Source: a virus (lineage: Duplodnaviria > Heunggongvirae > Uroviricota > Caudoviricetes). From it: a stretch of DNA of 13,722 bases. The notes under the pieces were generated by a model. It had not been told where the DNA came from, made no database searches, and was given only the letters and a program-made list of their open reading frames with translations. Below are positions 216 to 13,722 of this stretch, one piece after another (position 1 is the stretch's first letter; every line of letters starts with the position of its first letter). Where the stretch lies: positions 1-13,722 of the IMG/VR virus record IMGVR_UViG_2778261570_000018. One strand, 5' to 3'. A program made the position numbers and the translations under genes.

Positions 216-240
216 TAGGTATTTCGCCACATGAAAAAGT

Positions 241-266
241 AAACGCCGCTACTGCGGCGTTTTTTA
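241..266. terminator. Rho-independent terminator shared by convergent glnS and the Dam-like gene
   Basis: Stem aaacgccgc (241-249), loop tact, stem gcggcgttt (254-262), followed by a T-run through 265. The minus-strand Dam-like stop codon (264-266) lies in the T-tract. Confidence 0.65.
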
Positions 267-1169
267 CTTCATTATTGCAATTATATCGTTAGCAACTACA
301 CGTGTTGACGCCTTGCAGGAAACCGACCGTCTGGCTGCCATATGATGTACTTTAAACCCGTTTCCTTCATATAGCTCACGGATGTTTGGAGCACCACTAT
401 TTGTTATCACTACCTTAGCGCCGCGCTGGTGGGCATCCACCAACAGTGATACAAGCCGTTTTTGTTCATCGAAACGGAAGCTATTTCCTGAATAGCTGGT
501 AAATCCCTCTGTATCCGGAAGCGGTTCATACGGCGGATCACAAAAAATCACATCGTCTTCACCAGCCGCCTCGATGACGCTAGCAAAGTCTCCTGATACA
601 AAGGAAGTGTTTTTGAGTACGTCATCAGCCAAAAATGCCTCCATCTCTGCATGTGGGAAGTAGGGCGCTTTGTATTTGCCATACCCCACGTTGAACTCGC
701 CATTTTGGTTGTACCGCGTTACGCCATTAAAACAGTGACGATTAAGGTACAAAAATGCGGCAGCATGATGTAGCTGGTCATATTTTCCTCTGTTAAATGC
801 CTCACGCACTTCGAGGTAAGCGTCAGCGTTGTTGTAATTTTTGAAAAAACTATATGACAGCGTGACGAGCGAATGTCCTTCTCGCTGCAATGTCTGATAG
901 AAGTTAATCAGGTCACCGTTAATATCATTAAGCAGGTTGTGGCGAAATCCTGCATTCGTAAATACGGAACCGCCACCAACGAATGGTTCTATTAACCGCT
1001 TACCGTGTGGTAGATGCTCAAGCACTGTAGGCAATTCTGAGAATTTACCACCTACCCATTTGAATATCGGACGCTCATATTCATCCGGAGTCCGAATGGT
1101 GCGCATATAGCTAATTTCAGCCATCGTATCCTGTTTTTCTATGGCTATGCTTGCTATAGATTTACTCAT
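264..1169 (-). CDS. Dam-family N6-adenine DNA methyltransferase (orphan; start codon uncertain, alternatives ATG 1124 or 1106)
   Basis: Translation contains FKWVGGK (AdoMet-binding motif, as in E. coli Dam LKWAGGK), PFVGGGSVF, LYLNR and the catalytic DPPY motif (VIFCDPPYEP). ATG at 1169 is preceded by AAGGGGG and overlaps the upstream gene stop (TATGAGTAA), suggesting translational coupling. Confidence 0.85.
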   Translation of the reverse strand: MSKSIASIAIEKQDTMAEISYMRTIRTPDEYERPIFKWVGGKFSELPTVLEHLPHGKRLIEPFVGGGSVFTNAGFRHNLLNDINGDLINFYQTLQREGHSLVTLSYSFFKNYNNADAYLEVREAFNRGKYDQLHHAAAFLYLNRHCFNGVTRYNQNGEFNVGYGKYKAPYFPHAEMEAFLADDVLKNTSFVSGDFASVIEAAGEDDVIFCDPPYEPLPDTEGFTSYSGNSFRFDEQKRLVSLLVDAHQRGAKVVITNSGAPNIRELYEGNGFKVHHMAARRSVSCKASTRVVANDIIAIMK

Positions 1170-1842
1170 AGAGCACCCCCTTATTCGCTTCGAAAACTGC
1201 CTTTGCGAATCCATGTGGAGTAGCACTTCGAAAATTAGCCCTGTCAGGCCCTGGTGGCGCGGCATGGATTCTGTTATCTGGCTTGCCTAATGATTCGTCC
1301 ATTAGGGCATCAGGCATGACAAAGCCCTGGCCGCTCCAGAGGCATGTTTTTTTGGTGTAGTTATCTTCCTGACAATATGCAGTGAAGAAGTAAGGGTGAA
1401 AGATGTGATCTGGCTTACGCCAGAATGTCGATATTTTGCTGACCGGATTTTCAATCATGTACGGACAACCGATCATCTTTGCAATGTCATAACACTGCCA
1501 GACAACCTGCATTGCTTTGAACTGGAAAACCGGATCTTTATTAGCCTTGTCCGAAAACCAGCGCGCGCCGGAAACAGCCAGGTCAGTACACGGTGGGAAC
1601 CCGGCCAGAAACACGATGCGCTGCAAATTCTTACGGAGAAAAGCGTATACTTCATCGCTATCGATGATCGCACTAATACGCGTCAGAACGGCACCTGATT
1701 GCATCCGCTCGTCACTGGTCGATAAGTGCTGTGGATCGACGATAGCGGCATCGACACCGTATTCCAGCCAGGGGGCAACCATTGCCCCCGTAAAATCACA
1801 AAGACTCACAACAAGCGGTCGGTTATTATCGTTCTGCTTCAC
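1162..1842 (-). CDS. Short DNA C5-cytosine methyltransferase-like protein (about 226 aa; start uncertain, GTG 1842 preferred over ORF-track TTG 1914 and ATG 1782)
   Basis: Ordered motifs with C5-MTase-like spacing: LCDFTGAM (motif I-like), GFPPCTD (PC catalytic Cys motif IV), IENPVS (ENV-like motif VI). GGAGG sits 9 nt upstream of GTG 1842. Starting at 1911/1914 would overlap RdgC by more than 80 nt. Confidence 0.5.
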
Positions 1843-2731
1843 CGCCAATGGCCTCCACCAGCGCGTTAAACAGTGCAGATAATTCGCCCGTAAAGAGCAC
1901 GAAATCAGCATCAAATCGTTGTGCTACATCCTCCCGGTCGATATCGTCGTTCTGGTCATAGAGATCATCACAGAATGTCAGGGCTTTGATACTCATATCA
2001 TCGTTGACTCTGAACGACGCACGGTCCATCCAGTTAATTGCAACGGTCGTAGCTACTTTCCCCGCCTCAATGTGAGACATAATCTCGTCGGACTGTAGAT
2101 CAACTTTGTTGCAGCGAACGGCACCACCATTATCGAGCAGACCCTTTAATGTGGCGTCTTCACCTGCTGTAAATCCGGCAGGGAAGCCGCTTTTAAACCA
2201 CTCGGTCATTGTAATTTCCAGCGGTTCGCGTGGTGTGAATGGAATGACAGGCAGGCTGCCGAGCGACTTTCGCAATAAAGCCAGCTGGTCCTCTGCCTTT
2301 TTGGCGCTGCTTGCCTCAACGAATACCAGATGGTTGCTGCGGTCGATCAGGATTTTGGCGAGTGATTTTCTCGTGAACGCGCGAGGCAAAAGTGAATGCA
2401 GGACTTCATCTTTAAGACTGTCTCTTTCCGTTTTCTTCAGCTTGCGGGCTTGCTCTTCTTCGAGTTTCAGGACTTTTTTCTGCAACTCTTCCTTGAGCAC
2501 CTGCGAGGGGAGAATTTTTTCTTCTCGCTTATGCTGTATTAGCAGAAAACCCTGGTATTCATGGGTGAGGTTGTCACCAAGAACAGGTGTCCAACCGACT
2601 TTAGCTGTGTCCTGAGAACCGCAAGGAGTAAACACGAATTTGCTAAGAGCATCGGATACTTCTGCGGCACTCCAGTTAACTTCACGTGAAAGACGATAGA
2701 TGAAGATGTTTTTGAAAGCGACTGATCTCAT
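1826..2731 (-). CDS. rdgC: RdgC-like recombination-associated DNA-binding protein (extra, island-borne copy)
   Basis: 301 aa, ATG at 2731. Collinear similarity to E. coli RdgC as I recall it ([83 protein letters not shown]-terminal GGEA.R). Confidence 0.85.
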
Positions 2732-2737
2732 GTTTCA

Positions 2738-2781
2738 CCAATTGTGTTAGAAAATTCTATTCAATTATCTAACACAATTGG
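2738..2781. promoter_or_regulatory. Perfect 13-bp inverted repeat with 18-bp AT-rich spacer in the spike-rdgC intergenic region (candidate operator)
   Basis: ccaattgtgttag (2738-2750) and ctaacacaattgg (2769-2781) are exact reverse complements. They lie between the spike-like gene stop (2791) and the rdgC start (2731). No U-tract follows on the transcribed strand, so a terminator is unlikely. Confidence 0.4.
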
Positions 2782-2790
2782 ATGTGTTTT

Positions 2791-3444
2791 CTATCCCTTC
2801 TTGAAATCAAAGTTGCTTGCGATAGCCTGGAAGGTGCCTCCAGCCTTGAAATCAATATTTTCGTCGGCTGTCACAGTAATGTTTTTGCCATTAACGCTGA
2901 TGTTATCGGCTGATTTGACGTTAACACTCCCTCCCGCATTCACTACTACATCAGCCGGACCAATGATGTATATCTGCCCTGATTCATTCATTCCAATCCT
3001 TGAGCCTGCTGCCGTATTCGCTATTTCATATCCACCGCCAGCCGTTCGCACTTCGAGCACATTGTTGCGGTGAATCACGAAATCTTTTGTCGCCGAAAAT
3101 TGCGGGCGGGGAGGCGCTCCGTCTACTTCTGGTGGCGTCCAGCCGCTACCATTGCCTGACGCCTCCGGCGCGACGTTTGGTACTCCGCCAGGCGCATCCT
3201 GAGCTGCGCCAACTATCATTGGGCGTCTGGTATCAATTCGACCATTAACATCCAGATAAGGAAACTCTACCCATACCAGGTCGCCTTTTACTGTAGGTAC
3301 AAAAGCGTTTCCGATGGGTAACAGGTATTCCGCCCAGGGTAGATCGTCATCAGGAACGCCATTCCAGTCAGGTAAAACACGGACTTGAGCACGCATAAGC
3401 CCTGCCGGGTGCACAGTTCCAACAATTTGCGCTCTACGCTTCAT
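2791..3444 (-). CDS. Phage baseplate spike protein, gpV/gp5-like (N-terminal OB-fold plus C-terminal beta-helix-like repeats)
   Basis: N-terminus GLMRAQVRVLPDWNGVPDDDLPWAEYLLPIGNAFVPTVKGDLVWVEFPYLDVNGRIDTRRPMIVGA fits the gpV/gp5/VgrG OB-fold pattern. C-terminus has G/N/V-rich repeats (VVVNAGGSVNVKSADNISVNGKNITVTADENIDFKAGG). The ATG overlaps the upstream stop as ATGA. Confidence 0.55.
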   Translation of the reverse strand: MKRRAQIVGTVHPAGLMRAQVRVLPDWNGVPDDDLPWAEYLLPIGNAFVPTVKGDLVWVEFPYLDVNGRIDTRRPMIVGAAQDAPGGVPNVAPEASGNGSGWTPPEVDGAPPRPQFSATKDFVIHRNNVLEVRTAGGGYEIANTAAGSRIGMNESGQIYIIGPADVVVNAGGSVNVKSADNISVNGKNITVTADENIDFKAGGTFQAIASNFDFKKG

Positions 3445-4421
3445 TTGTTCGGCACTCCCAATATCATTCGTGTTGTGTAGCCTACGCGGTCTTCAAAGTG
3501 CGCAACATTTTTTACTATCAGCTTACGGGGCATTGATTCATCAATGCGGTTTTCCTGGTCATAGCGGTATACGATAATCTCTATCACCATTCCCGGTTTT
3601 ATATCAGGATTGCCTGCGACTTCTATATCCATTTTGGGGACGAGAGACAGCTGCATATTGCGAAGAGTTTCCATATCAGAGTCGGATATATAACGCACTG
3701 GGAGTGAGCTATCGCCATATTCGACGTAGCCATCGGTCATGGAATACCCAACAAAACGATATTGATTCTTTGCTGTTGTCGCATGTTCCTGTTGGAGTAG
3801 GCGCATTTTGGACAAAGTGTATTCTGCTTTAGGGTTATTCCCCTCGTAGGTAAATGATGGCGTTTGCTTCATCAGATCAGCCAGGGTGTAAAAGTTAAAT
3901 TCCCCCCGGCATACCCAACATAATGCACCTTTGTCTCGCGCTATCTCCGAAAGCATTTTTGACGGTTTGTCACCGGCATTCAGATGATATGTAACTGCGC
4001 GTTTTAGCACGCTGCTGGTAATTTTAAGTTTGCCGGAATATGCCTTGAATATAGCGTCTGGTGTTTTGTTGGTATGTAAATTTGTGCGCGGGGAGGGGAT
4101 CTTAAACCTGCGCACGTCTTCACTGACAGCAATAACGGTAACAACATCACCAGCCAGCATTGCAGACGTAACAAAGAAATCTGTTTTAAAAGTGCCTGCA
4201 TTACCGTTTGGATCGCCCATTTCAGCCACCAGCGATGCACCGTATTTGGCTTTCCAGTCATCAATTACGGTGCCGGTAGCGTCATGAATTTCCAGTTTTA
4301 GCAAAGGGGCTTTGAGGCTGGTTTTTTCTACATATACTGCGGTAAAAATCCAGTCTCGTGGCACTTTGTTATCGTTAATGAGCACTGACTGTAGAAAATA
4401 TTGTTGTAACTCCTGGGCCAC
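3441..4421 (-). CDS. Hypothetical protein, 326 aa, in the tail/baseplate-like operon (possible hub-type protein; function not established)
   Basis: Long ORF with GTG start at 4421, 3 nt after the upstream stop, preceded by GGGGTGA. Its stop overlaps the spike gene start (ATGA). No family motif recognised with confidence. Confidence 0.55.
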   Translation of the reverse strand: MAQELQQYFLQSVLINDNKVPRDWIFTAVYVEKTSLKAPLLKLEIHDATGTVIDDWKAKYGASLVAEMGDPNGNAGTFKTDFFVTSAMLAGDVVTVIAVSEDVRRFKIPSPRTNLHTNKTPDAIFKAYSGKLKITSSVLKRAVTYHLNAGDKPSKMLSEIARDKGALCWVCRGEFNFYTLADLMKQTPSFTYEGNNPKAEYTLSKMRLLQQEHATTAKNQYRFVGYSMTDGYVEYGDSSLPVRYISDSDMETLRNMQLSLVPKMDIEVAGNPDIKPGMVIEIIVYRYDQENRIDESMPRKLIVKNVAHFEDRVGYTTRMILGVPNK

Positions 4422-4424
4422 TTA

Positions 4425-5192
4425 TCACCCCATAGATATCGAGGTTTCGGTAATAATACGTTTTGCGTCCAACTCCCATGCTGTGATCACGTCTGCAATC
4501 ACACTTATCGGCGCTTGTGTGGCATAAATACGCTCTTCTCCAATTGGTGCTGAAACATCCGTAAAGCCGACTTCTTTGGCATCCTGTATCGAGCAAATCA
4601 ACGGGACCGGGACACGAACAAGGTGAGTGGTGGCTTCAAATTGTGTACCTGTCATCAGGCGAAGCCGTGCGCCCAGCGAATTACACATCAGACTCATGGT
4701 CGCTTTATCAGTTGCCATTAACGTAACGTCATACGTCAGAATGGCCTGGGTGTATTCCAGTTCTGCTAAAGGCATTCCGGTATCCGGTTCGCAAAAACTG
4801 GCTACTTTTTTGCGGTCAATCTGCTGATCATCGTTGATATAATTGATATCCATAGTGCGTGAGATATTGACCAGGGGGAGAGCATCCCGGTTAATGTTCT
4901 GGTTTTCAGGTTTTCTCCCTTGCCCGGCATTTGCGCGACGAACTGCTTTAAGAAACTCGATCGCATTGTCGAAACGGGCCACATAGACACGCTCTGCTGG
5001 TGGACGATTCAGGAATGACGCAAAGCGTTTTTCTTCCGGCGCGGGGGCCACCAGTAAGATATCAGAAAAAATGTTGCTGATTAGCGTCGCAAACGCGTTA
5101 TCCACGTTTTCAAAGCCCGTGGTCTGGAATTTTCCTGTGCGTGAGGTTTGCCATTCACCTGTTCGCGCCAGGAGGGTTTTATTTGAAGTCAT
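4425..5192 (-). CDS. Hypothetical protein, 255 aa, in the tail/baseplate-like operon
   Basis: ATG at 5192 overlaps the upstream stop (ATGA). Uninterrupted ORF with position in a tightly coupled operon. No recognisable motif. Confidence 0.55.
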   Translation of the reverse strand: MTSNKTLLARTGEWQTSRTGKFQTTGFENVDNAFATLISNIFSDILLVAPAPEEKRFASFLNRPPAERVYVARFDNAIEFLKAVRRANAGQGRKPENQNINRDALPLVNISRTMDINYINDDQQIDRKKVASFCEPDTGMPLAELEYTQAILTYDVTLMATDKATMSLMCNSLGARLRLMTGTQFEATTHLVRVPVPLICSIQDAKEVGFTDVSAPIGEERIYATQAPISVIADVITAWELDAKRIITETSISMG

Positions 5193-5980
5193 TCGATCAC
5201 TCCGTTTTGAGTCGTATCAAAATTCCTGGCAGGTATGCAGTAGTAAAGCGAACCAACATGTTGTGTGCCGTAGCTAAAAATACGGTGCACGTACCACCAG
5301 CGGCGGGCTACGCCGTTTACCATCTCTTCATTCCATTCAAGAATTGATCCGACGGGGACTTTATTTGCTGCAATACGCAGAATCAGAACATCATCGGTTA
5401 AGCCATCCTGCTCACCGTCTGCGTCAATCGCATGGAAAGAGTCACGCCCGTCCGGGTTATCCAGCACATAAACGATTTCAGGTTCCTGGTAAGTCAGTTC
5501 GCGCTGGTTGTTATCCAGTTCAGTGAATGACTCTTCTCCTGTTTCGTCGCTGACTACCCCATATGTGCCAACATCTGGTCGATATAAGAGAGCCTGAAAC
5601 GCGTCTGGGCTGGATTCAATAATCAGCATCCAGTCTGCGCGGATTTGGTCGTTAAAGGCTTTATGCCCGTTATAGCGTGCTTTTAACTGTGGAGTCGGTT
5701 CTCTGCCAGCCAGGGAAGATGGAAGTATGGCTATATCTGATTCGCCAGCATCCGGAGTAAGGCCACCGTTGCTATCAGCAAAATTATCATGGCTATCAGC
5801 TTTGGCGGCGGGTTGCTCTTCCAGAATGCTGAATGAATCCGAACCGGTATTGCCATGTTCCGGCGCGCCTCCTGCATTCGCTTCAATCGGCGCTGGCGTT
5901 TCTCTCTGCGTGCTGTCATGTTCTGACTCCTTACTTGCCAGGTTTGCATCGTCAGCAAACCATTCGTCAAAACGGCCCAT
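5189..5980 (-). CDS. Hypothetical acidic protein, about 263 aa, first gene of the tail/baseplate-like operon (start ATG 5980; ORF-track TTG 5992 unlikely)
   Basis: GAGG sits 6 nt upstream of ATG 5980. The N-terminal half or so is D/E/S/G-rich low complexity; the C-terminal part appears globular (WWYVHRIFSYG...). Confidence 0.55.
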   Translation of the reverse strand: MGRFDEWFADDANLASKESEHDSTQRETPAPIEANAGGAPEHGNTGSDSFSILEEQPAAKADSHDNFADSNGGLTPDAGESDIAILPSSLAGREPTPQLKARYNGHKAFNDQIRADWMLIIESSPDAFQALLYRPDVGTYGVVSDETGEESFTELDNNQRELTYQEPEIVYVLDNPDGRDSFHAIDADGEQDGLTDDVLILRIAANKVPVGSILEWNEEMVNGVARRWWYVHRIFSYGTQHVGSLYYCIPARNFDTTQNGVIE

Positions 5981-6074
5981 AAGCATCCTCAAAGGTCGAT
6001 CTGTCAGGTATCGAAAGGAAGATTTTCGGGAGATTGTGATTTTGGATGAAGGAGGGGGAATTCATAAAATGCAC

Positions 6075-6103
6075 TTGCGCACAGTGCAACGGTGCGCTAT
6101 AGT
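6075..6103 (+). promoter_or_regulatory. Candidate sigma70 promoter of higBA-1 with an operator-like inverted repeat in the spacer
   Basis: TTGCGC (6075-6080), 17-bp spacer, TATAGT (6098-6103). Inverted repeat gcgcac (6077-6082) / gtgcgc (6092-6097) sits between the -35 and -10, a typical autorepression layout. GGAGG at 6126-6130 precedes ATG 6143. Confidence 0.4.
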
Positions 6104-6142
6104 TATGGCATTCAGTAATCCTCACGGAGGATCAAATGGCTA

Positions 6143-6445
6143 ATGACCAAAAAAATTAACATAAAGGATTTCAGGGATGCGTGGCTTGATGATTTTTTTG
6201 AATTTTCAACACCACATAGAAAGATACCTCCTGATATTCATATGACATTGTCACGGAAGTTGGACATTATCAATGCCGCAACTACCTGTAATGATTTAAG
6301 ATCACCACCAGGTAATCGGTATGAGGAACTGTCAGGGAAGCTAAATGGCTATTCATCAGTAAGGGTGAATAAGCAATATAGGTTAATTTTTAAGTGGGTT
6401 AACGGAAAGGCCGAGGACTTGTATCTCGACCCTCACAAATACTAA
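6143..6445 (+). CDS. higB: HigB-family toxin (Rts1 HigB / killer-protein type, RelE/ParE superfamily)
   Basis: 100 aa. C-terminal pattern EELSGKLNGYSSVRVNKQYRLIFKWVNGKAEDLYLDPHKY parallels Rts1 HigB (...LKGDREGYWSITVRANWRITFQFINGD..L..EDYH as recalled). Toxin-first gene order with a downstream HTH antitoxin. Confidence 0.8.
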   Translation: MTKKINIKDFRDAWLDDFFEFSTPHRKIPPDIHMTLSRKLDIINAATTCNDLRSPPGNRYEELSGKLNGYSSVRVNKQYRLIFKWVNGKAEDLYLDPHKY

Positions 6446-6515
6446 AACAGATACCCGGTTACGAACCGGGTTCTGACCAGAGTCCACTTAATACGCACGC
6501 TAGTAAGGGCAAAAA

Positions 6516-6854
6516 ATGAAACAGGCAACCAGAAAACCGACGACCGTAGGTGATATCCTGCTGTACGAATACCTGGAGCCGTTAGAGCTGAAGATCAACG
6601 AGTTAGCAGAAATACTTCATGTTCATCGTAACACCGTAAGTGCTCTTGTTAATAATAATCGTAAGCTAACGATGGATATGGCATATCGCCTGGCAAAAGC
6701 ATTCGATACTTCTGTAGATTTTTGGATTAATCTTCAGACCGCAGTAGATCTGTGGGAAGTCGAAAATGATATGCGCGTTCAGGAAGAGTTAAGTCGTATC
6801 AATACTGCTGAAAAATTTATTTCTCAGCGGAACCTGAATAAAAAAGCAGCCTGA
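6516..6854 (+). CDS. higA: HigA-family antitoxin (XRE-type HTH, addiction-module antidote)
   Basis: 112 aa. GDILLYEYLEPLELKINELAEILHVHRNTVSALVNNNRKLTMDMAYRLAKAFDTSVDFWINLQ matches the HigA antidote HTH pattern. TAAGGG is 6 nt upstream of ATG 6516. Confidence 0.8.
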   Translation: MKQATRKPTTVGDILLYEYLEPLELKINELAEILHVHRNTVSALVNNNRKLTMDMAYRLAKAFDTSVDFWINLQTAVDLWEVENDMRVQEELSRINTAEKFISQRNLNKKAA

Positions 6855-6873
6855 TATAGTAAAACACATACAA

Positions 6874-6905
6874 AAAGCCCACTTAGCAAGTGGGCTTTCC
6901 TTTGT
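6874..6905 (+). terminator. Intrinsic terminator after higBA-1
   Basis: Stem aaagcccact (6874-6883), loop tagca, stem agtgggcttt (6889-6898), then cctttgtaatt. Confidence 0.55.
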
Positions 6906-6910
6906 AATTA

Positions 6911-7270
6911 ATGAACATTAAACCCATCCGTACAGAACAAGATTATGAGGCCGCACTGCGTGCGGTCGAACCGATGTTCGATAACGAACCGGAAATGAAT
7001 ACTCCGGAAGGTGATTTCTTTGAGGTTATGAGTCTTCTCATTGAGGAGTACGAGAAAAAACATTACCCAATTGAGCCACCATCACCTATTGAGGCCATTA
7101 AATTCCGTATGGAACAGCAAGGGCTGACCGTGAAGGATCTGGAACCGGCAATTGGTAAGTCAAACCGTGTTTACGAAGTGCTTAATGGGACACGAAATTT
7201 GACGTTACCTATGATTCGTCGTTTACATGCCCAGTTTGGTATTCCACTGGAAAGCCTGGTTGGCGTTTGA
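6911..7270 (+). CDS. Stand-alone HigA-like antitoxin/regulator of the E. coli YgjM (K-12 HigA) type, C-terminal HTH
   Basis: 119 aa. C-terminal GLTVKDLEPAIGKSNRVYEVLNGTRNLTLPMIRRLHAQFGIPLESL parallels K-12 HigA (GLTLSDLPEIGSKSMVSRVLSGKRKLTLEHAKKLATRFGISPALF as recalled). N-terminal EQDYEAALRAVEPMF parallels EEQYTQALELVDHLL. No cognate toxin gene is adjacent. Confidence 0.7.
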   Translation: MNIKPIRTEQDYEAALRAVEPMFDNEPEMNTPEGDFFEVMSLLIEEYEKKHYPIEPPSPIEAIKFRMEQQGLTVKDLEPAIGKSNRVYEVLNGTRNLTLPMIRRLHAQFGIPLESLVGV

Positions 7271-7275
7271 GTTTT

Positions 7276-7299
7276 GCGGTCTGGATGACCGCTGTTTTT
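7276..7299 (+). terminator. Intrinsic terminator after the HigA-like gene
   Basis: Stem gcggtc (7276-7281), loop tggat, stem gaccgc (7287-7292), then tgttttt. Confidence 0.55.
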
Positions 7300-7333
7300 A
7301 TAAAAAATAGATACTAGAAATTTGGTAGCATAT

Positions 7334-8113
7334 ATGAGTACAGATTCATCAGTAAAGAAGACATCTGAATCAGATAAAGAAAATGAGTCCGTTGTTGATT
7401 CCGTCAAGAATACAATGGAATATGTTATAAAAGACAAAGTATTTAATAAGCTTTTTGCATATATTTTTATATCTTTTCTGGTTGTTAACTGGAGAGATAT
7501 ATTAATTTTGTTCAAATCAAAAGAAGATGTTCTATATACTCTGTCAATAGTTTTTACCGGTGAAAAAATACAATTTCTTGATGGCGAGATTTTACCTCCT
7601 TGGTTTGCCCACTTTTTCTTGCCGTTTTTCTATGGTGTGATTGCGTCGATTGTGGCACCAGTAATTACACTTGCGGTATCTTGCATTACAACTAAGGTGT
7701 ACTATAAAATAAAAATTTTGGACAATAAAACAGACGAAAACGAGAAAGAGAAATTAGCAAAAAGAGCCAAGAAAAGAGCTGAGCGTGAAATAGAGGCTAG
7801 CTATAGCCAACAAAAGCTGGATGAAAGAAAAAAAGAACTGGAAGACATTTTAAACAAAATAGAAGATGAAAAAGAAAAATATGATAAAATGAAAGAAAGG
7901 TTTGATGATGCCATAACGCTTACATATAAAAATATTCACATTTTGCCTACTCTGTATGAGAATAGGAAATGTAAAATTGAAACTCCGCAGGATTTATATG
8001 ATTTTATTGCAGCAATAAAGAAAACATCATTCTATAGTACTGATTTTAATGAATTGTTCTCTGATATTTCTCGATTGTATTCTGAAATGCAAACTGATTT
8101 ATCAGAAAAGTGA
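7334..8113 (+). CDS. Hypothetical membrane protein with two predicted TM helices and a long charged coiled-coil segment (AT-rich, likely foreign gene)
   Basis: 259 aa from ATG 7334 (the ORF-track start at 7322 is TTG). Hydrophobic segments LFAYIFISFLVVNW and FFLPFFYGVIASIVAPVITLAVSCI, then a K/E-rich heptad-like stretch (NEKEKLAKRAKKRAEREIEASYSQQKLDERKKELEDILNKIEDEKEKYDKMKERF). Coding region is visibly AT-rich compared with its flanks. Confidence 0.6.
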   Translation: MSTDSSVKKTSESDKENESVVDSVKNTMEYVIKDKVFNKLFAYIFISFLVVNWRDILILFKSKEDVLYTLSIVFTGEKIQFLDGEILPPWFAHFFLPFFYGVIASIVAPVITLAVSCITTKVYYKIKILDNKTDENEKEKLAKRAKKRAEREIEASYSQQKLDERKKELEDILNKIEDEKEKYDKMKERFDDAITLTYKNIHILPTLYENRKCKIETPQDLYDFIAAIKKTSFYSTDFNELFSDISRLYSEMQTDLSEK

Positions 8114-8114
8114 A

Positions 8115-8137
8115 AGCCTGGCATAGACCACCAGGCT
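8115..8137. terminator. Hairpin between convergent genes (weak candidate bidirectional terminator)
   Basis: Stem agcctgg (8115-8121), 9-nt loop, stem ccaggct (8131-8137). No tight U-tract on either strand. Confidence 0.3.
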
Positions 8138-8148
8138 ATATGTGTGGT

Positions 8149-9342
8149 TTATGCTTTTTTTACATACGCCATAAACATTTTTTCAGCATGTTCTTGTGGC
8201 GTTCCTGCCATGACAAGCGCATCAATGAACGCCTGCTTCTTCAGTGCGAACTGATCGGCCAGGCGTTGCTGAAGCTCCTTGTTTTTCTGTTTCTCACGTT
8301 GCAACGCCGCTTCTTTTGCTGCCGCCCGTTTTTTCTGTGCGTCTGACAACTTTCTGGCCTTGGTCAGTTGGTCACGTAGCTTGTCAATCTTGCCGTTGTC
8401 CTTTGCCAGTTTTGTGCTTAAAGCGGCCTGGCGCTTCTGATAGAGCCTCCATTCTCGCTTGGCAGCGTCAACGTTCGTTTTACTGCTACGATTGCGATTA
8501 AACTCCTTCTCGTCTTCTTTTGAGAAGTGTTTGGTTGTACGGCGGCGATCGTCACCAAATGCAATTTGCGTTGCAGCCTTTTGTAGCGCACGAGCAATAC
8601 TCATTTGCCAACTGGCGGACTGTAACCGCGTCATTGAGTGGATCACGTGTTTACAGGCGACGCCTTGCAGCTTCGGGTTGCGAACTTTTGGATAGGCGTA
8701 TTCTTTTGGCGGTGCCAGGGCAAAGTTACCCGCAGTGGCGATGTAACGATACCAGTATTGATGACGACCACAGTCACAATCGAAAGACACTCGCCCGGCG
8801 CACAGTGATTTAGTGATTTTGAGAGCTGATTTATCGTCTTCTGCGATGTCATCAACCATCTGATCCCATTCTTCAAAGCGTATCCGGACGATATGGTGCT
8901 GGTGGACGGATATATCCGATGCTTCTACGCGGATATTAATCACATTGTGGCGAAGAGATACGGGTGTAGCTCTTTTGATACCAGATCCGTCATCCACGGC
9001 GTTATTTGCACGCTTAATATCGATAGCCTGGCTGGATGCCACCAGCTGGGCGTATGTGATGCCAGCCGTCTTGCTGTCATATTTTTCGCGCGTTTTACTC
9101 CGTAGCTTTTCGAAGCCTTTCAGATCGTCTCGCGTAAAGAACGTGCCGCCTTTTTTCTTCCCTAACTTGAGAATATCTTCGACGGATTTGTTCCTAAGTC
9201 TGCCTGGCGTCAGCGTCCGGTGAGCTTGTCGGCGCTTACGGGTTTGTTCTTTCCTGATAAGGTCGAATAAACGCGTGAAGTCCTTAGAGGACAGACCGTC
9301 AGTGATATAGCGCCCGTCCTGGTTTTTCAGGAAATCAGGCAT
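8149..9342 (-). CDS. Hypothetical basic protein, 397 aa, with central Cys/His cluster and C-terminal coiled coil (possible nucleic-acid-binding zinc-finger protein)
   Basis: ATG at 9342 with GGAG 7 nt upstream, overlapping the upstream gene stop by 8 nt (ATGCCTGA). K/R-rich N-terminus, CAGRVSFDCDCGRHQYWYRY...GVACKHVIH cluster, and a K/Q/A/E-rich C-terminal region of roughly 100 aa. Confidence 0.6.
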   Translation of the reverse strand: MPDFLKNQDGRYITDGLSSKDFTRLFDLIRKEQTRKRRQAHRTLTPGRLRNKSVEDILKLGKKKGGTFFTRDDLKGFEKLRSKTREKYDSKTAGITYAQLVASSQAIDIKRANNAVDDGSGIKRATPVSLRHNVINIRVEASDISVHQHHIVRIRFEEWDQMVDDIAEDDKSALKITKSLCAGRVSFDCDCGRHQYWYRYIATAGNFALAPPKEYAYPKVRNPKLQGVACKHVIHSMTRLQSASWQMSIARALQKAATQIAFGDDRRRTTKHFSKEDEKEFNRNRSSKTNVDAAKREWRLYQKRQAALSTKLAKDNGKIDKLRDQLTKARKLSDAQKKRAAAKEAALQREKQKNKELQQRLADQFALKKQAFIDALVMAGTPQEHAEKMFMAYVKKA

Positions 9343-9664
9343 TTTCTATCTCCGGTTCCGCGCTCGCGTAATCACGGATCTTGTTCCTCAGCCATGCCAC
9401 ATCAGGAAGAGTTAACGTGGTCCCGGCGGGCATTTCTTCCATTTCTGACTCATGGCCCACCAGCACCCGGAATACCCAGCGCAAATCTGCATTGCCATAC
9501 GCCCTGTAGGCTGCAAGGTCTGAACGATATACTTCATCAATCTTTATCGTGTACTGGAAATTATCAGAGTGATACTCCGATACCCGCTTAATCATTTCCT
9601 GGTGAAACAGCGCACGAAAAATATCGTCTTCAATGTACCTATCGTCGAGTCTGCTATAGCCCAT
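9335..9664 (-). CDS. Small protein with LysM-like / phage tail protein X (gpX)-like C-terminal region
   Basis: 109 aa, ATG at 9664 with GAGGGG 7 nt upstream. YTIKIDEVYRSDLAAYRAYGNADLRWVFRVLVGHE..EMPAGTTLTLPDV resembles the P2 gpX pattern (GDTLDAICVRYYGR...VLAANPGLA...LPHGTAVELPDV as recalled). Assignment is tentative. Confidence 0.4.
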   Translation of the reverse strand: MGYSRLDDRYIEDDIFRALFHQEMIKRVSEYHSDNFQYTIKIDEVYRSDLAAYRAYGNADLRWVFRVLVGHESEMEEMPAGTTLTLPDVAWLRNKIRDYASAEPEIENA

Positions 9665-9725
9665 AACAAAGCCCCTCAGTCATAACCTGGGGGAAACTGT
9701 ATGTAGGGTGTGAAATGCGAGAAAG

Positions 9726-9751
9726 CAGCGTCACCGGGCCTGGTGACGCTG
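9726..9751 (-). terminator. Stem-loop downstream of higA-2 (weak terminator or attenuator before the gpX-like gene)
   Basis: Perfect 10-bp stem cagcgtcacc (9726-9735) / ggtgacgctg (9742-9751) with a 6-nt loop. On the minus strand it is followed by a C/U-rich stretch (cuuucucgc) rather than a clean U-run. Confidence 0.35.
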
Positions 9752-9756
9752 TGAAG

Positions 9757-10038
9757 TTATGCGTGGAAAAATAATGGACGGATGTTTGGGCGAGCGGTTT
9801 GCGAAGCAACCCAAAGCTCATACTGAGATTGCATACCGGTCCACATTTCGGCACTGGTTCCAAGAGCGGACTCCAGACGAAGTGCCATATCAGCAGAAAT
9901 GCCTGCTTTTTCGTTCAGAATTCGGGAAAGTGCCGTGCGAGTAATGCCTAATGCAGCAGCGGCGTCTGTGACTGACATGTCTCCCAAATATTCACGAAGA
10001 ACCGCGCCAGGATGCGCGGGATTATGCATACGACTCAT
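9757..10038 (-). CDS. higA: HigA-family antitoxin (XRE-type HTH), second module
   Basis: [72 protein letters not shown] parallels Rts1 HigA (HPGE...SRLL..K......[21 protein letters not shown] as recalled). ATG 10038 is preferred, with GAGGAA overlapping the higB-2 stop; the ORF-track start at 10050 is TTG. Confidence 0.8.
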
Positions 10039-10046
10039 AGTGTTCC

Positions 10047-10328
10047 TCAATGATAATCCTGATAGTCAACTAGAATTGCGTCTTCTCCTTCAAATCGGAA
10101 GGTAAGTCGCCAGTTACCGTTTACCGATATTGCCCAGTGACCTTTAAGGTCCGCCCCCTTTAGAGGGTGCAATTCCCATCCAGGCGCAGACATATCGTCC
10201 GGGCGTTTAGCTGTATTAAGAGCAGTCAATTGAATGCGTAGCTTAACCGCATGTTTGGCCTGAATGCCTGCGGTTGAACCTGTCTTGAAAAAGCGTTCAA
10301 GCCCTTTATGGCGAAATGACTTAATCAA
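10047..10328 (-). CDS. higB: HigB-family toxin (Rts1 HigB type), second module; likely TTG start at 10328
   Basis: Translation from TTG 10328 gives [18 protein letters not shown]...[43 protein letters not shown], closely paralleling Rts1 HigB (MIKSFKHKGLKLLFEKG...HPLKGDREGYWSITVRANWRITFQFINGDAYILNYEDYH as recalled). GGATGG lies 7 nt upstream. The ORF-track start at 10391 adds a non-conserved 21-aa extension. Confidence 0.8.
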
Positions 10329-10354
10329 AATAATTCCATCCGTGCGCGTAACCT

Positions 10355-10391
10355 GTGTATATACACTACACGCAGAGGGAGCGAAATGCAA
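10355..10391 (-). promoter_or_regulatory. Candidate higBA-2 promoter with a 12-bp perfect palindrome operator
   Basis: On the minus strand: TTGCAT (plus 10386-10391), 17-bp spacer, TAGTGT (plus 10363-10368). Perfect palindrome GTGTATATACAC (10355-10366) overlaps the -10 and predicted transcription start. Confidence 0.4.
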
Positions 10392-10664
10392 GCACTATCC
10401 GTATAGACAGAGTTTCTTCGCCGCCCTGGAATTTATTGACTGTCAACAAGTGACTTTCATTAATCTTAAGGCATGGACCAGCTCGATAGTGAGCTGGGTG
10501 TTATTTACCGATCGAATGGATTCGAAAAGATGAATATTTTTAATAAGCTGATTGATTTATTGAATAAATTCATTAGTGCTTCTTTAACTCAGCAGGTATC
10601 CACGTCAGTGTTTTTGTTACTCTTCTACCTGGTATTGAGGGAGTTAACAAAGCTACTAATGTGA

Positions 10665-11318
10665 TCAAAGTATCACGGTATCTTCATCAACTTCTTTCCC
10701 AGCCAGTGACTTTGGCTGGGAACTGCCTGCTTTAACTTTTTCATGCCCAATAATGGAAAGGAACGAAGTGAGTATGCCTGTTTTTTGCTCTTTCTCGACT
10801 GTACCGGTCATCTGCTCTACGTAATCCGCACTGGCAACGTTGTGGTATACGGTCGCGTAGCAACACAGGATCATCAGAATATGCTCCGGCCTGATATCCT
10901 GCCAGTTCACCCTGTAGACTTCTTCTCCGTTACCGTTGTATTCGGTATCAACGATAGAGTCGGGGATTTCGAAAGCACCTTTGTTATTTTGCGGCAGGGA
11001 TAATAGCTTCTGGAGTTTTAACTCTCTGTATCTTTCCATCCCGACGATGATTGCTGCTCTGCCATCGGCATGACGGGTCTTGAGAGTCACCTGGCTTGCT
11101 CCGGTGCCAGCGGAGATCGTTGGCGTAATTTCGTCTACCAGTACCTTAAATTTGCTTTTCCGCAGGGCTGCTATAGCTGGAGGAATTTTTTGCTTTTGCT
11201 CCAATGCTGACGCGGGAAGGGGTTTTACTTCGTTAATAATGAGAGCACCGTCTTTCAGTATTGCAGTGAGCATTTGAGGCTTGCTGGTGGTCAGGCTGAA
11301 TATTGCGATCTTTTCCAT
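10665..11318 (-). CDS. Hypothetical protein, about 217 aa, unknown function (start ATG 11318)
   Basis: ORF with GGAGAAAGGA immediately upstream of ATG 11318. The ORF-track N-terminal extension to 11360 runs into the terminator hairpin and is not credible. No family recognised. Confidence 0.55.
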   Translation of the reverse strand: MEKIAIFSLTTSKPQMLTAILKDGALIINEVKPLPASALEQKQKIPPAIAALRKSKFKVLVDEITPTISAGTGASQVTLKTRHADGRAAIIVGMERYRELKLQKLLSLPQNNKGAFEIPDSIVDTEYNGNGEEVYRVNWQDIRPEHILMILCCYATVYHNVASADYVEQMTGTVEKEQKTGILTSFLSIIGHEKVKAGSSQPKSLAGKEVDEDTVIL

Positions 11319-11344
11319 TGTCCTTTCTCCACGGATGACGGATA

Positions 11345-11370
11345 CAAAAAAAGGCCGCACATGGCGGCCT
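11345..11370 (-). terminator. Canonical rho-independent terminator on the minus strand, immediately upstream of the RBS of the 217-aa gene
   Basis: Minus-strand RNA: stem aggccgc, loop caugu, stem gcggccu, then seven U (plus 11352-11370 hairpin, A-run 11346-11352). Lies about 25 nt upstream of ATG 11318. Confidence 0.65.
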
Positions 11371-11601
11371 GCTTTGGCGTTATGACTCCCTACCGCGCTT
11401 CGGCTGAAAGTTAATCGTCAAAAGAACCTTCAACGGGAGCCGTTAGCGCGATGGATTATGTGCAGTTTGTGATTTCCAAAATAGTGTCAACTACTTTTTG
11501 TGGATTTTATTTTTTGTCCGAAATTTGGCCTAAATCATGTTGATTTGGCTGATTATTTTTATAACATAAAACTTCATTTTGTTTACATGAAGGACGGTGT
11601 A

Positions 11602-12216
11602 GTGAAGTTAAGGGTTTTAGGGACCGCGCTCGCGGCTATGTTGGGATGCGTATCTGTTAATACTGCCAATGCAACTGCGTTACCTGCAAAGTATTGGGCT
11701 GGTGTGAAAGTGTTGCGGAACGCTGAAAAAGGCAATACAGCTGATGATATTTTCAAGTTTTGCCAAAAAGAAAATATCCCTCTGCACCCGGTTGAGCCGT
11801 ACTTTACAGGAAAGAATGATTTCTGTGTGTTTGCGTATACCGCAGACCAAACAGATAAGGCTATACGCAAGACAGGGTATTCTACTCAAGACACTATGGC
11901 GTCCTTAAGTAAAAACTGGTTGCAGTTTGAGGTTTACCGTAGTGAAGGAATGGGAGAGCTATTGCAGCCACTGTATATGCTGGCGTTAGTTCCGGAAGGG
12001 CAGCAGTTCCTTATTCGAAAAGGAATGCTTCGGAAAAGCGATGTAACCGGATTCAATAACACGATGGAGCTTGAACGCTCAATGAAGCAAAAGCAAGCGC
12101 CTAAGCAGCCAACAGCCGAATGTATTAGCAGCGAGATACAAAAGGCATTAAGCGAGCAGCCTTACATTGATCGTGGTGTGGCGGAAATGGCTGCCAAAAT
12201 GAAGTGTTCCAATTAA
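11602..12216 (+). CDS. Hypothetical secreted/periplasmic protein with N-terminal signal peptide (start GTG 11602; alternative ATG 11587)
   Basis: AAGGA (11590-11594) is 7 nt upstream of GTG 11602. N-terminus MKLRVLGTALAAMLGCVSVNTANA is a typical signal peptide (ANA cleavage site or a weak lipobox). Mature part contains several Cys. The ORF-track start at 11500 lacks an RBS. Confidence 0.55.
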   Translation: MKLRVLGTALAAMLGCVSVNTANATALPAKYWAGVKVLRNAEKGNTADDIFKFCQKENIPLHPVEPYFTGKNDFCVFAYTADQTDKAIRKTGYSTQDTMASLSKNWLQFEVYRSEGMGELLQPLYMLALVPEGQQFLIRKGMLRKSDVTGFNNTMELERSMKQKQAPKQPTAECISSEIQKALSEQPYIDRGVAEMAAKMKCSN

Positions 12217-12259
12217 CGTCAAATAGAATAACAAGATAGTAAATTTTGGAGTTAATGAA

Positions 12260-13081
12260 ATGTTCTTTATGAAAAATGGAAAAAGATTTTCCGCAACAAT
12301 GCTTGCTACTATTGTCGCTCTTTTCGTTCCCACATTCACCTTTGCTTATGATTTTAGCAAAATTGACTGCAATGCCCCTAAAACCAGGCAGATGTTAATC
12401 GATGATTATAATGAACTACTCAAGGACGATCAGGAAGCAATCACTGTAATTGATGCTTATAATCAGATTAATGAAATAAGCGAAAAAAGTAAGCTCCAAT
12501 GTTTAGGCACGTATGAGTTCTCAGATGGAAGTGCGCTTAGAGTTAGATATAAGTTATATTTAAATAGCCTCGGCACACCCATATATGAATTTGCTCCAGT
12601 TGAGGAATTAACGCAGGATGATGTAAGCGCATCTATTCAAAATATCCCTGCAACCACAGCGAGTAGGACTGGGGGGAATGAAGAAACGTATGCCTGCAAG
12701 GTGGCTGTAACTTACAAGGGGGAGCGTTCTAACTATATGGGGGATTCCGGAACATGGGATCGTGTGATTACTGACTATGGCACTTATTTTTCATGGGATT
12801 TACCACGCGGAAACCGAGGCAACAGCACAGGTCAGGATGCTTTTAGTGGCATGGACGAATCAAAGCCTGTATTAGAAAATCAGCTAGTGAGAAAGGAAAC
12901 TGAAAAAGATGGTAGCGTGGTTGATGAGTTTAGGACAGAAGTGAGTTATGGAGATAAACAACCGGTACATAAGTTTGTATATGCCCGTAGAATAAAACCT
13001 ACAGGAACGAGAGAATATTATGTCACTGATTTGACGGACAAGCGGGCATTTATGTTTCTGAATTGCCAGCAAGATTCGTAA
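12260..13081 (+). CDS. Hypothetical secreted protein with N-terminal signal peptide
   Basis: GGAG is 8 nt upstream of ATG 12260. N-terminus MFFMKNGKRFSATMLATIVALFVPTFTFA. AT-rich coding region, 43 nt downstream of the preceding gene (likely co-transcribed). Confidence 0.6.
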   Translation: MFFMKNGKRFSATMLATIVALFVPTFTFAYDFSKIDCNAPKTRQMLIDDYNELLKDDQEAITVIDAYNQINEISEKSKLQCLGTYEFSDGSALRVRYKLYLNSLGTPIYEFAPVEELTQDDVSASIQNIPATTASRTGGNEETYACKVAVTYKGERSNYMGDSGTWDRVITDYGTYFSWDLPRGNRGNSTGQDAFSGMDESKPVLENQLVRKETEKDGSVVDEFRTEVSYGDKQPVHKFVYARRIKPTGTREYYVTDLTDKRAFMFLNCQQDS

Positions 13082-13086
13082 TTGAT

Positions 13087-13124
13087 AAAGCAGGCTTAAC
13101 GACTAAGCCTGCTTTTTGAATTTT
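13087..13124 (+). terminator. Intrinsic terminator after the secreted-protein operon (also abuts the stop of the convergent membrane-protein gene)
   Basis: 11-bp perfect stem aaagcaggctt (13087-13097) / aagcctgcttt (13105-13115), 7-nt loop, then tttttgaatttt. Confidence 0.6.
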
Positions 13125-13473
13125 ACTCGGTAATAGTTTTGCAGTTGTTTTGGTTTAAGACCAATCCAAGTTTGCTGGCGGCCAACTCATTTTCTGTGTG
13201 AGAGCCAGCAAATACAAATCCTTGTTTTATCTTATTTACGGTGAAATATTTATTGTATATAAATGCCCAGACAAGTGAAGCTACCCAAGGACCAATTCCT
13301 GCAGTGAGGAATGCCAGGATTAGCATCACAACGAACACCCCGATGAAAGTTATAAAGTCTTTCCTGAACAAAGCCGGGAAGGCACCAAAAAAGAACGTAG
13401 TCCAGGAGAATCCATAAAAGCCTGAGATGGACTCGCCTGTCCGAGGATTTTCTAAGTTAATTTTAGTAGCCAA
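13123..13473 (-). CDS. Small inner-membrane protein (116 aa, two predicted TM segments), TTG start
   Basis: Hydrophobic stretches FYGFSWTTFFFGAFPALF and FIGVFVVMLILAFLTAGIGPWVASLVWAFIY. AAAGGA is 9 nt upstream of TTG 13473. No in-frame ATG is available near the N-terminus. Confidence 0.55.
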   Translation of the reverse strand: MATKINLENPRTGESISGFYGFSWTTFFFGAFPALFRKDFITFIGVFVVMLILAFLTAGIGPWVASLVWAFIYNKYFTVNKIKQGFVFAGSHTENELAASKLGLVLNQNNCKTITE

Positions 13474-13530
13474 AGTTATTCATCCTTTAACGTAAAAAAA
13501 CAAATAATTATAAAGCTGTGTGAGTGTGCT

Positions 13531-13559
13531 ATTTTACTAATCTACACTATGTTATGCAA
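13531..13559 (-). promoter_or_regulatory. Sigma70-like promoter for the membrane-protein gene
   Basis: On the minus strand: TTGCAT (plus 13554-13559), 17-bp spacer, TAAAAT (plus 13531-13536). About 50 nt upstream of the TTG start. Confidence 0.5.
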
Positions 13560-13574
13560 TTTATTGGTATCATG

Positions 13575-13591
13575 CCCCGGCCTGACCGGGG
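13575..13591. other. GC-rich stem-loop (ccccgg / ccgggg) downstream of a truncated minus-strand ORF; no U-tract
   Basis: Perfect 6-bp GC stem with a 5-nt loop at 13575-13591. Lies between the stop of the edge-truncated ORF (13601) and the -35 of the membrane-gene promoter. Confidence 0.3.
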
Positions 13592-13600
13592 CAAAAGCTA

Positions 13601-13722
13601 TTAACTAACAATCCAGTCCGTAGCAACAACATCCTCTGGAGCTAAATCAATAGCATGGATTTTCCCATCCCGGATAGTGCGCCAGTGCTTTCGTGATCCA
13701 CCTTCGGGCCACACCCATATAC
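13601..13722 (-). CDS. Possible 3' end of a minus-strand CDS truncated by the window edge (unknown product)
   Basis: One minus-strand frame is open across the last 120 nt and ends at TAA (plus 13601-13603): ...IWVWPEGGSRKHWRTIRDGKIHAIDLAPEDVVATDWIVS*. No start codon lies inside the window, so this cannot be confirmed. Confidence 0.25.
   Translation of the reverse strand, partial: IWVWPEGGSRKHWRTIRDGKIHAIDLAPEDVVATDWIVS

Follow-up and report, generated by a model that had tools for sequence, protein, structure and literature searches.

The stretch of viral DNA analyzed here (hereafter the window) is 13,722 nucleotides (nt) long, comprises positions 1 to 13,722 of the IMG/VR record IMGVR_UViG_2778261570_000018, and carries on its minus strand an open reading frame (ORF) of 217 residues that belongs to the Mat family of phages P1 and D6. 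We interpret this D6-like mat gene as being under the control of a transcription attenuator, that is, a structured leader RNA ending in an intrinsic terminator between a late promoter and the mat start codon, and its product as a non-catalytic or atypical assembly factor rather than a defence protein. The probability of this interpretation as a whole we would put at about 60%. The comparisons of homologous loci described below support the attenuator as a matter of anatomy and evolution, and from them we infer its mechanism. P1 is a classic model phage, and its Mat is an essential gene product whose biochemical role has been obscure since the era of amber mutants.

The mat gene and its structured leader

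The ORF and its product (MEKIAIFSLTTSKPQML) were as described in the original prediction, an earlier note on this DNA made from the sequence alone. That note had matched the protein to no family, and on this point it needed correction: PHROG 1837, the P1 Mat family, matched residues 1-211 with an E value of 3.3e-94. Searches by tblastn showed the protein to be 98.6% identical to that of orf78 of Escherichia phage D6, which is annotated as "maturation control protein, similar to P1 gene mat", and to have 31-35% identity over 81-95% of its length to the Mat proteins of P1, P7, RCS47, SJ46 and JK004. "Maturation control protein" is also the RefSeq name for the gene on E. coli plasmids of ~90 kb, and the 3 kb surrounding the gene in the window matched an E. 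coli plasmid of ~92 kb at 99.8% DNA identity. Judged by this homology, the gene is a member of an already named family, P1/D6 Mat. No Pfam or NCBIfam model matches Mat, which accounts for the gene not having been recognized. Of the profile searches that had been proposed, PHROG thus supplied a family, and Pfam, NCBIfam and PADLOC did not; a sequence search of the PDB with the single Mat sequence returned nothing meaningful. The window is colinear with D6 (glnS-like, dmt, hrdC, 5, 6, 24, 7, accessory genes, 25, 26, mat, simB-like), a gene order that places it, as a D6-like prophage, among the plasmid prophages of the P1 family.

An intrinsic terminator is located on the same strand 33 nt 5' of the mat ATG. 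Its hairpin has a 7-bp stem (AGGCCGC/GCGGCCT, 11370-11352) with six GC pairs, a 5-nt loop (CAUGU) and a folding free energy of about -12.5 kcal/mol, and it is followed by TTTTTTG, with the U-run extending to 11346. A sample of homologs drawn from viral contigs, annotated phages and a set with a single genome for each species comprised 74 loci, with 33-100% protein identity, and had 57 distinct upstream regions. All 57 contained a GC-rich hairpin with a T-rich tail 16-34 nt before the start codon, including those of P1, P7, SJ46, JK004, Xenorhabdus, Erwinia, Pantoea and Rosenbergiella. These hairpins were of 19 distinct types, with stems of 7-11 bp, free energies between -10.6 and -18.6 kcal/mol and 3-8 T among the 9 nt that follow. 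The 27 nt between the U-run and the ATG in the window contain the Shine-Dalgarno sequence alone and no promoter and, as there is no space for a promoter 3' of the terminator, Mat synthesis would require read-through. An alternative GTG start (11360) of a longer ORF falls within the hairpin and is not conserved. The dedicated leader with a terminator that the original prediction had proposed for this gene was therefore borne out by the comparison of homologs, which also supports putative attenuator control; the statement that no other gene in the window has such an element was checked over positions 9600-12400.

The leader is ~105 nt long and contains, in order, an outer helix (helix P1), the P2 hairpin, a hairpin bearing the sequence GCGCGG (P3), a linker and the terminator. 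The first three elements form a three-way junction, and the same junction was obtained in separate folds of the leaders of phages P1 and JK004 and of the homologous loci L024, L030, L032, L034 and L059. Clades with Mat proteins that are only about 50% identical still share the sequence blocks CUUUUGAC(A/G)A and GCGCGG. The loop of P2 is CUUUUGACGAUU in the window and reads CCCUUUUCAAAU in the P1 clade, and the sequence of the outer helix differs in every clade (Table 1). It was because of these differences in helix sequence that RNAalifold, when run on a MAFFT alignment, recovered the terminator alone and none of the upstream helices, and covariance models were built as a consequence.

The first of these models, R1, found the leader exactly once in the complete D6 genome, and the mat leader was its sole strong match in the window; all other matches scored at most 24 bits and were generic terminators. 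A second model, R2, was built from seven sequences without the clade of the window and still detected the window leader (48 bits, E about 6e-12). In the first alignment, 82% of the cells were paired, compared with 74.1 +/- 1.1% in shuffled alignments (0 of 500 shuffles reached the observed value) and 35-58% with slid partners, and the terminator helix was 100% paired across 20 distinct leaders. In the second, 77% of the cells were paired, compared with 32-54% with slid partners, nine of the 14 pairs of the outer helix had changed on both sides, and there were 10 double-sided pair changes, compared with 5.3 +/- 1.1 in shuffles (again 0/500); the terminator scored low in this second count through an error in the mapping of columns. 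Rfam 15 at gathering thresholds identified no family in the window, and the best scores of a permissive Rfam scan of the leader were 12-18 bits against cut-offs of 41-70.

The leader accompanies mat in P1 although P1 mat is separated from genes 26 and 25, its partners in the window. Since the leader stayed with mat after this relocation, it appears to be tied to mat and not to the tail genes.

Immediately upstream of the leader is a putative D6-type Lpa-dependent late promoter, equivalent to LPmat of P1. It is a perfect copy of the consensus, with a -22 box AATCACAAACT (11474-11464), the spacer gca and the -10 sequence CATAAT (11460-11455), and from the position of the -10 sequence transcription is predicted to start at about 11448, at the base of the folded domain. 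The P1 record has the C1 operator Omat, the sigma-70 promoter Pmat and the late promoter LPmat (AAGTGACTT, 4 nt, CAGAAT) just 5' of the leader, and the seven annotated P1 late promoters that we extracted share AAGTGACTT-N4-TAnnnT. The D6 late operons instead carry AATCACAAACT-N3-(T/C)AnnnT (14 sites, compared with about 4.3 in shuffles), and this D6-type box precedes about 10 D6 operons that are orthologous to P1 late-promoter operons, including prt/pro, lydA/dar, R/S, sit, gene 23 and gene 7. A second copy in the window, at about 6041 (-), precedes the gene 7 homolog (start 5992). Each clade has its own type of box at the same distance from the leader. The D6-type consensus appears to be new, and would help in the annotation of D6-like plasmids, of which clinical Enterobacterales carry many. 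The upstream-region alignment also contained a conserved TTGACA block, which corresponds to the -35 of P1 Pmat. In the window this block is 24 nt from the -10 sequence, no sigma-70 promoter was called there, and its function is uncertain.

Modes of action proposed for the leader

Based on this arrangement, we propose that RNA polymerase would start at the Lpa-type late promoter, make a leader that folds into the three-way junction and then meet the intrinsic terminator ahead of the mat start codon. Mat would be made solely from transcripts that read through the terminator, so that the leader would act as a transcription attenuator which, at minimum, keeps Mat low, and the terminated product would be a stable RNA of about 100 nt. 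Most likely, read-through would depend on a trans-acting factor that recognizes the conserved junction and loops and that could be Mat itself, Lpa or a protein of the host. We infer termination, its modulation and the existence of such a binder from the organization of the locus. Given a conserved leader and terminator that are absent from Rfam, the published view of mat control by dual promoters is likely incomplete.

Several observations weigh against this proposal. The start site, the efficiency of termination and read-through are all predictions, and the covariation comes from about 8-10 independent clades and from alignments that were fitted to the models. The core of the terminator stem (GCCGC/GCGGC) is nearly invariant, so that it shows little covariation of its own. 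The minimum free energy fold of the window leader has not the junction but an alternative helix, CGCGCU/AGCGCG, for which one compensatory change was found, in L024. As a test for an antiterminator, the leader of each clade was folded after truncation 3' of the 5' arm of the terminator. Pairing of this arm with the outer helix (5' strand) is possible in the Pantoea clade, in L059 and in Xenorhabdus; in the last of these, a pairing of 11 bp and a further 1:2 hairpin together give the classic attenuator layout (1:2 / 2:3 / 3:4). In the clade of the window, however, the antiterminator was weak (5 bp), and none was found in L030, L032-34, P1 or JK004. As there is no universal antiterminator, a self-contained, riboswitch-like switch is not a general feature of these leaders. 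Finally, the conserved structured leader with its terminator appears to be new, but Lehnherr et al. 2001 may already describe the leader.

The main rival to attenuation by a trans-acting factor is a constitutive, leaky terminator that reduces mat transcription by a fixed amount, and/or a folded leader that shields the 5' end of the mRNA, with nothing being sensed. We regard this as possible but doubtful. It is consistent with the lack of a conserved antiterminator across clades and with the low requirement for Mat suggested by CRISPR interference (CRISPRi; see below). In addition, the U-tract of the Pantoea clade is weakened (UUUCGCC), which fits selection for partial termination, although in most clades the terminator is canonical and looks strong. 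A leaky terminator would not, however, need ~75 nt of upstream structure in which CUUUUGAC and GCGCGG are invariant and compensatory changes extend to loci with 33% protein identity, nor would it need to stay with mat after the relocation in P1.

A second alternative, which we consider unlikely, is that the terminated leader is itself the functional product, either as a trans-acting small RNA (sRNA) or as the RNA partner of Mat in a ribonucleoprotein, and that read-through into mat is a by-product. The predicted product of ~100 nt resembles an sRNA in having a structured 5' domain, a single-stranded linker, a terminator hairpin and a U-tail. It would be encoded once per genome, always immediately 5' of mat, and its loop has one motif in the D6 clade and another in the P1 clade, matching the division of the proteins. 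Mat, moreover, has the predicted fold of a nucleic-acid enzyme with a degenerate active site. Comparable RNAs would be the packaging RNA (pRNA) of phage phi29 and the omega RNAs encoded upstream of the RuvC-fold IscB proteins. Against this alternative, the Rfam matches to sRNAs were far below threshold, and a distant Mat relative (L076) has no leader. The P2 loop was also rejected as an sRNA seed with a phage target, as it had 10 matches with at most 3 mismatches in D6, the window and P1, compared with 6-16 in shuffles. A separate observation on this loop is that both copies (S and S') of the tail-fibre variable region of D6, at 32600 (+) and 35959 (-), contain on their sense strand ACGTCAAAAGA, a contiguous 10-nt complement of the P2 loop, which taken alone is within chance expectation. 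A lambda-Q-like role for the leader as a mark of all late operons was discarded because D6 has one copy per genome.

It may also be conjectured, as a long shot, that the leader is a dedicated sensor, with Mat or Lpa reading the leader of its own operon and so gating the baseplate operon, or that it is an RNA partner of Mat, with the complex taking part in DNA packaging or particle maturation in the manner of the phi29 pRNA. If true, the P1-family phages would gain a previously unrecognized RNA component of morphogenesis.

Translation-coupled attenuation by a leader peptide, or an N-terminally extended Mat, would require a short ORF to start from a conserved NTG in the P2 stem, and we consider either very unlikely. 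The NTG is at the same place in most clades (TTG in the window, ATG in P1, JK004, L064 and L059, GTG in Xenorhabdus) and is in frame with mat in P1 and L059. However, it has no Shine-Dalgarno sequence before it and is ACG in L032, and the ORFs range from 7 to more than 40 codons, differ in their frames relative to mat and, in the D6 clade, end before the hairpin. The conserved nucleotides GGACGGCACA fall in different reading frames in P1 and JK004, and the N-terminal extension of P1 Mat is conserved neither in length nor in frame; on both grounds, the conservation acts at the level of RNA or DNA rather than of a peptide, as far as can be read from the alignments.

These comparisons also have a bearing on the annotation of P1. 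The P1 record starts Mat at 2716, giving a protein of 250 residues, and the leader and hairpin are thus annotated as coding. The hairpin in P1 (AAGCCGCC-gct-GGTGGCTT, then TTCTTTTTT) is 20 nt before an ATG at 2827, which is 37 codons after the annotated start, is preceded by a Shine-Dalgarno-like GGGGG, and is the point at which homology with the D6 clade begins. Starting there, Mat would have 213 residues, and the annotations of SJ46 and JK004 use the corresponding short start. We conclude that the start of P1 Mat has probably been mis-assigned by 37 codons and that its annotated N-terminus would be the leader described here.

The Mat protein, its neighbours and other features of the window

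Residues 1-165 of Mat are predicted to have an RNase H-like fold with TerL-specific elaborations, and the C-terminal tail, which was of low confidence in the prediction, ends in a conserved acidic motif (...DEDTVIL). The resemblance is to the nuclease domain of TerL, as in gp17 of RB49/T4 (3c6a, 3cpe), G20c (5m1f), Sf6 gp2 and human cytomegalovirus UL89, and is one of predicted fold only. Unlike these proteins, Mat has no ATPase domain, its identity to them is 5-14%, and the catalytic Asp of beta1 is replaced throughout the family. RNase H-like nucleases all carry a catalytic Asp at beta1. The corresponding position in Mat (S8) is S/T/C/A in 70 of 74 members, with V and N once each among the listed residues, and is never D/E. 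Conserved acidic residues are found at the end of beta4 (D62/E63, 97% D/E), at D/E95 (80%) and at D/N138, the last being N in the clade of the window. Because the beta1 Asp is absent across the family, Mat would be a pseudo-nuclease, or at most an atypical one. This TerL-nuclease-like pseudo-enzyme fold, as modelled, appears to be new.

An exhaustive profile search identified 126 clusters of Mat homologs, almost all of them stand-alone proteins of 185-240 residues. No TerL-ATPase fusions or other domain contexts were found among the 126 representative clusters, and all of the distant members tested fall in PHROG 1837. The resemblance to TerL has no counterpart in the sequence searches: a comparison of the Mat and PacB families by hhalign gave a probability of 0.7%, none of the 74 Mat members matched a terminase Pfam model, and the Mat family profile found no PDB sequence. 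A BLAST comparison of Mat with the PacB nuclease domain likewise gave no signal, and we rejected the idea of Mat as a recent paralog of that domain on the basis of the BLAST and hhalign results. It was also ruled out that Mat supplies a nuclease missing from PacB, as PacB is a complete TerL, with a match to the TerL PHROG that spans residues 32-473 and with the conserved nuclease motif xDVGxGRD intact.

We propose, with low confidence as to its exact role, that Mat would be an assembly factor that binds nucleic acid or the portal during DNA packaging, head completion or tail joining, and would act neither as a packaging-motor nuclease nor in defence. This biochemical role is deduced in large part from the predicted fold, which suggests a step at packaging, at the portal or at the DNA end. 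A counter-indication is that the mat-26-25-7 synteny and the translational coupling of mat with baseplate genes suggest tail assembly, not packaging. In either case, a dead terminase-nuclease fold, if the prediction holds, would direct work on Mat to the portal, packaging, head completion or nucleic-acid binding. P1 mat is listed as essential from amber mutants (Lehnherr et al. 2001, as cited in PMC10695390), and its CRISPRi knock-down lowered plating to 0.28 only (PMC10695390). The P1 virion proteome paper nowhere mentions Mat. In P1, Mat is a morphogenesis factor outside the virion that particle maturation requires.

In the window, mat is the first gene of the baseplate/tail module, in the order mat-[higBA insertion]-26-25, and the mat-26-25 synteny is also present in D6, JK004 and the very distant relative L076. 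The Mat-family member of L076 (locus 4001-7766, profile E about 3e-6) lacks both leader and terminator. The ORF before it ends across its start, its own stop overlaps a gene 26-like baseplate wedge gene by 4 nt, and gene 25-like and gene 7-like genes follow. Since this leaderless locus keeps the order mat-26-25-7, the linkage of mat with the baseplate genes seems to predate the leader. In the window, gene 26 is preceded at a distance of 38 nt by a degenerate late box, TTTCACACCCT-aca-TACAGT, which is conserved in D6; the boxes before gene 26 are clearer in L030 and JK004 than in the window or D6. Because of this box it is uncertain whether genes 26 and 25 of the window depend on read-through, and our initial view that they depend strictly on read-through from LPmat was softened.

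The original prediction had placed the gene between a toxin-antitoxin (TA) module and an AT-rich operon of secreted proteins. Its flanks are indeed higBA, which is downstream on the same strand and separates mat from gene 26, and, upstream, a divergent pair of plus-strand genes (about 11587-12216 and 12260-13081). D6 has no higBA at that position and, by this comparison, higBA is an insertion outside the mat unit, which explains the proximity of mat to a TA module. The further suggestion that the protein could be a regulated defence or stress effector, here associated with the neighbouring TA module, is largely refuted and has next to no likelihood: mat does adjoin higBA and accessory "moron" genes, and its product is without a Pfam or NCBIfam family, but it is orthologous to a phage gene that is essential for morphogenesis, is the first gene of a baseplate/tail module whose synteny is kept over deep divergence, shares its late-promoter motif with structural operons, and has no PADLOC match (at E<=0.01, neither Mat nor any of the four non-TA neighbours tested had a PADLOC family). 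The confident match to PHROG 1837, a non-defence family, is the kind of result that the original prediction had named as refuting it, and it applies at the level of family identity.

Table 1. Features of the mat region of the window, with the outer-helix sequences of other clades (5' strand / 3' strand).
Feature	Position	Strand	Details and evidence
mat	10665..11318	-	217-residue ortholog of P1/D6 Mat, particle maturation control protein; ATG 11318-11316, stop included at 10665
Shine-Dalgarno sequence GGAG	11327..11330	-	8 nt 5' of mat ATG; read directly from sequence
Whole mat leader RNA	11341..11454	-	covariance model R1, cmsearch, 113.4 bits, E about 7e-31
Intrinsic terminator of leader	11346..11370	-	terminator scan; hairpin table across clades; pairing in distinct leaders
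Three-way-junction domain	11384..11441	-	independent minimum free energy folds, covariation counts, covariance-model matches
Outer helix (P1), window clade	11441-11435 with 11390-11384	-	GGCUCCC / GGGAGUC
Hairpin P2	11431-11425 / 11412-11406	-	stem; conserved 12-nt loop at 11424-11413
Hairpin P3 (short)	11404-11401 / 11395-11392	-	GCCG / CGGU; holds invariant GCGCGG block
Outer helix, Pantoea			GGUUCCC / GGGAAC
Outer helix, Rosenbergiella			CGAACC / GGUUCG
Outer helix, Xenorhabdus			GGUUCUGG / CCAGA-ACC
Outer helix, P1 phage			GCCCGGUAC / GUACCGGGC
Outer helix, JK004			AGCCCGGUGC / GCGCCGGGCU
D6-type Lpa-dependent late promoter (LPmat equivalent), putative	11455..11474	-	motif shared with D6 late operons
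Conserved TTGACA block	11485..11490	-	upstream-region alignment
higBA	9757..10391	-	higB 10391-10047, higA 10050-9757; Pfam HigB-like_toxin 1.2e-20, HTH_3
Downstream operon partners 26 and 25 together	8149..9664	-	synteny with D6
Gene 26 homolog (baseplate wedge)	9664-9335	-	PHROG 1269/1722 matches for 26/25 pair
Gene 25 homolog (tail protein)	9342-8149	-	PHROG 1269/1722 matches for 26/25 pair

Several other features of the window were observed. The tail module contains accessory insertions at 9757-10391 (-), 6143-7270 (+) and 7322-8113 (+). Between genes 25 and 7 there are, as in D6, a second HigB-like/helix-turn-helix (HTH) pair with an extra HTH gene, and a 263-residue coiled-coil/transmembrane protein (PHROG 8191). 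Directly 3' of the higA stop, within 9700-9745 (-), is a 9-bp hairpin (AGCGTCACC-aggcccg-GGTGACGCT), which the degenerate late box of gene 26 follows; the palindrome at this place in D6 is another one. A CxC...CxH pattern in the gene 25 homolog (FDCDCGRHQYW...ACKHVIH) resembles, by eye only, a SWIM-type zinc finger. At the other end of the window, positions 24-215 (+) are the 3' end of a phage-borne glutaminyl-tRNA synthetase gene (D6 orf62), which is followed by a terminator-like hairpin with a weak covariance-model match at 204-271. A search of the window for tRNA and tmRNA genes found none.

Just downstream of mat, and antisense into it, is a perfect P1-type late promoter (10448-10466, +; caac AAGTGACTT tcat TAATCT), which precedes an ORF of 63 residues (10473-10664, +) with a hydrophobic C-terminus. 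The P1-type box at this site is the only perfect one in the whole D6 genome, in which the late operons use another box; the window, D6 and L029 share it, and more distant clades lack it. We speculate that it may respond to the Lpa of a co-infecting P1-type phage. Reciprocally, the first 48 kb of P1 contain a single D6-type late box (AATCACAAAGT aca TACCGT, about 31590, -), before the holin-like lydC.

Comparison with known systems

The pRNA of phage phi29 is a three-way-junction RNA of a DNA-packaging motor. It is a structured phage RNA of about 100-170 nt, and the mat leader likewise has a three-way junction and adjoins a protein with the predicted fold of a packaging enzyme; the comparison is a pure analogy, with no similarity of sequence or model behind it. 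There is also a likeness to the lambda pR'-6S RNA-tR' region, the trp leader and the leaders of ribosomal-protein genes, in all of which, as would be the case for mat, expression requires read-through of the intrinsic terminator of a leader. With the lambda region the mat leader shares an intrinsic terminator that separates a phage late promoter from the first gene, and with terminator-based attenuators and protein-binding leaders a structured 5' domain that could be a recognition site. It differs from the lambda- and trp-type systems in being present in one copy per genome, in having no identified Q-like factor or leader peptide and no Rfam match, and in its antiterminator not being conserved.

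The nearest known systems are mat of P1 (gene 1, "particle maturation control"; Lehnherr et al. 2001, J Bacteriol 183:4105) and its D6 ortholog, orf78. The mat genes of P1 and of the window are homologous over the full length of the protein, and both have a late promoter at the same relative place and a leader with a hairpin and U-run. The window and D6 differ from P1 in their -22 box (AATCACAAACT rather than AAGTGACTT). In the window, moreover, TTGACA is too distant from the -10 sequence for the two to form a sigma-70 promoter, and a C1 operator was not recognized. Lastly, mat of the window and D6 is still joined to genes 26 and 25, whereas that of P1 is located between ref and res.

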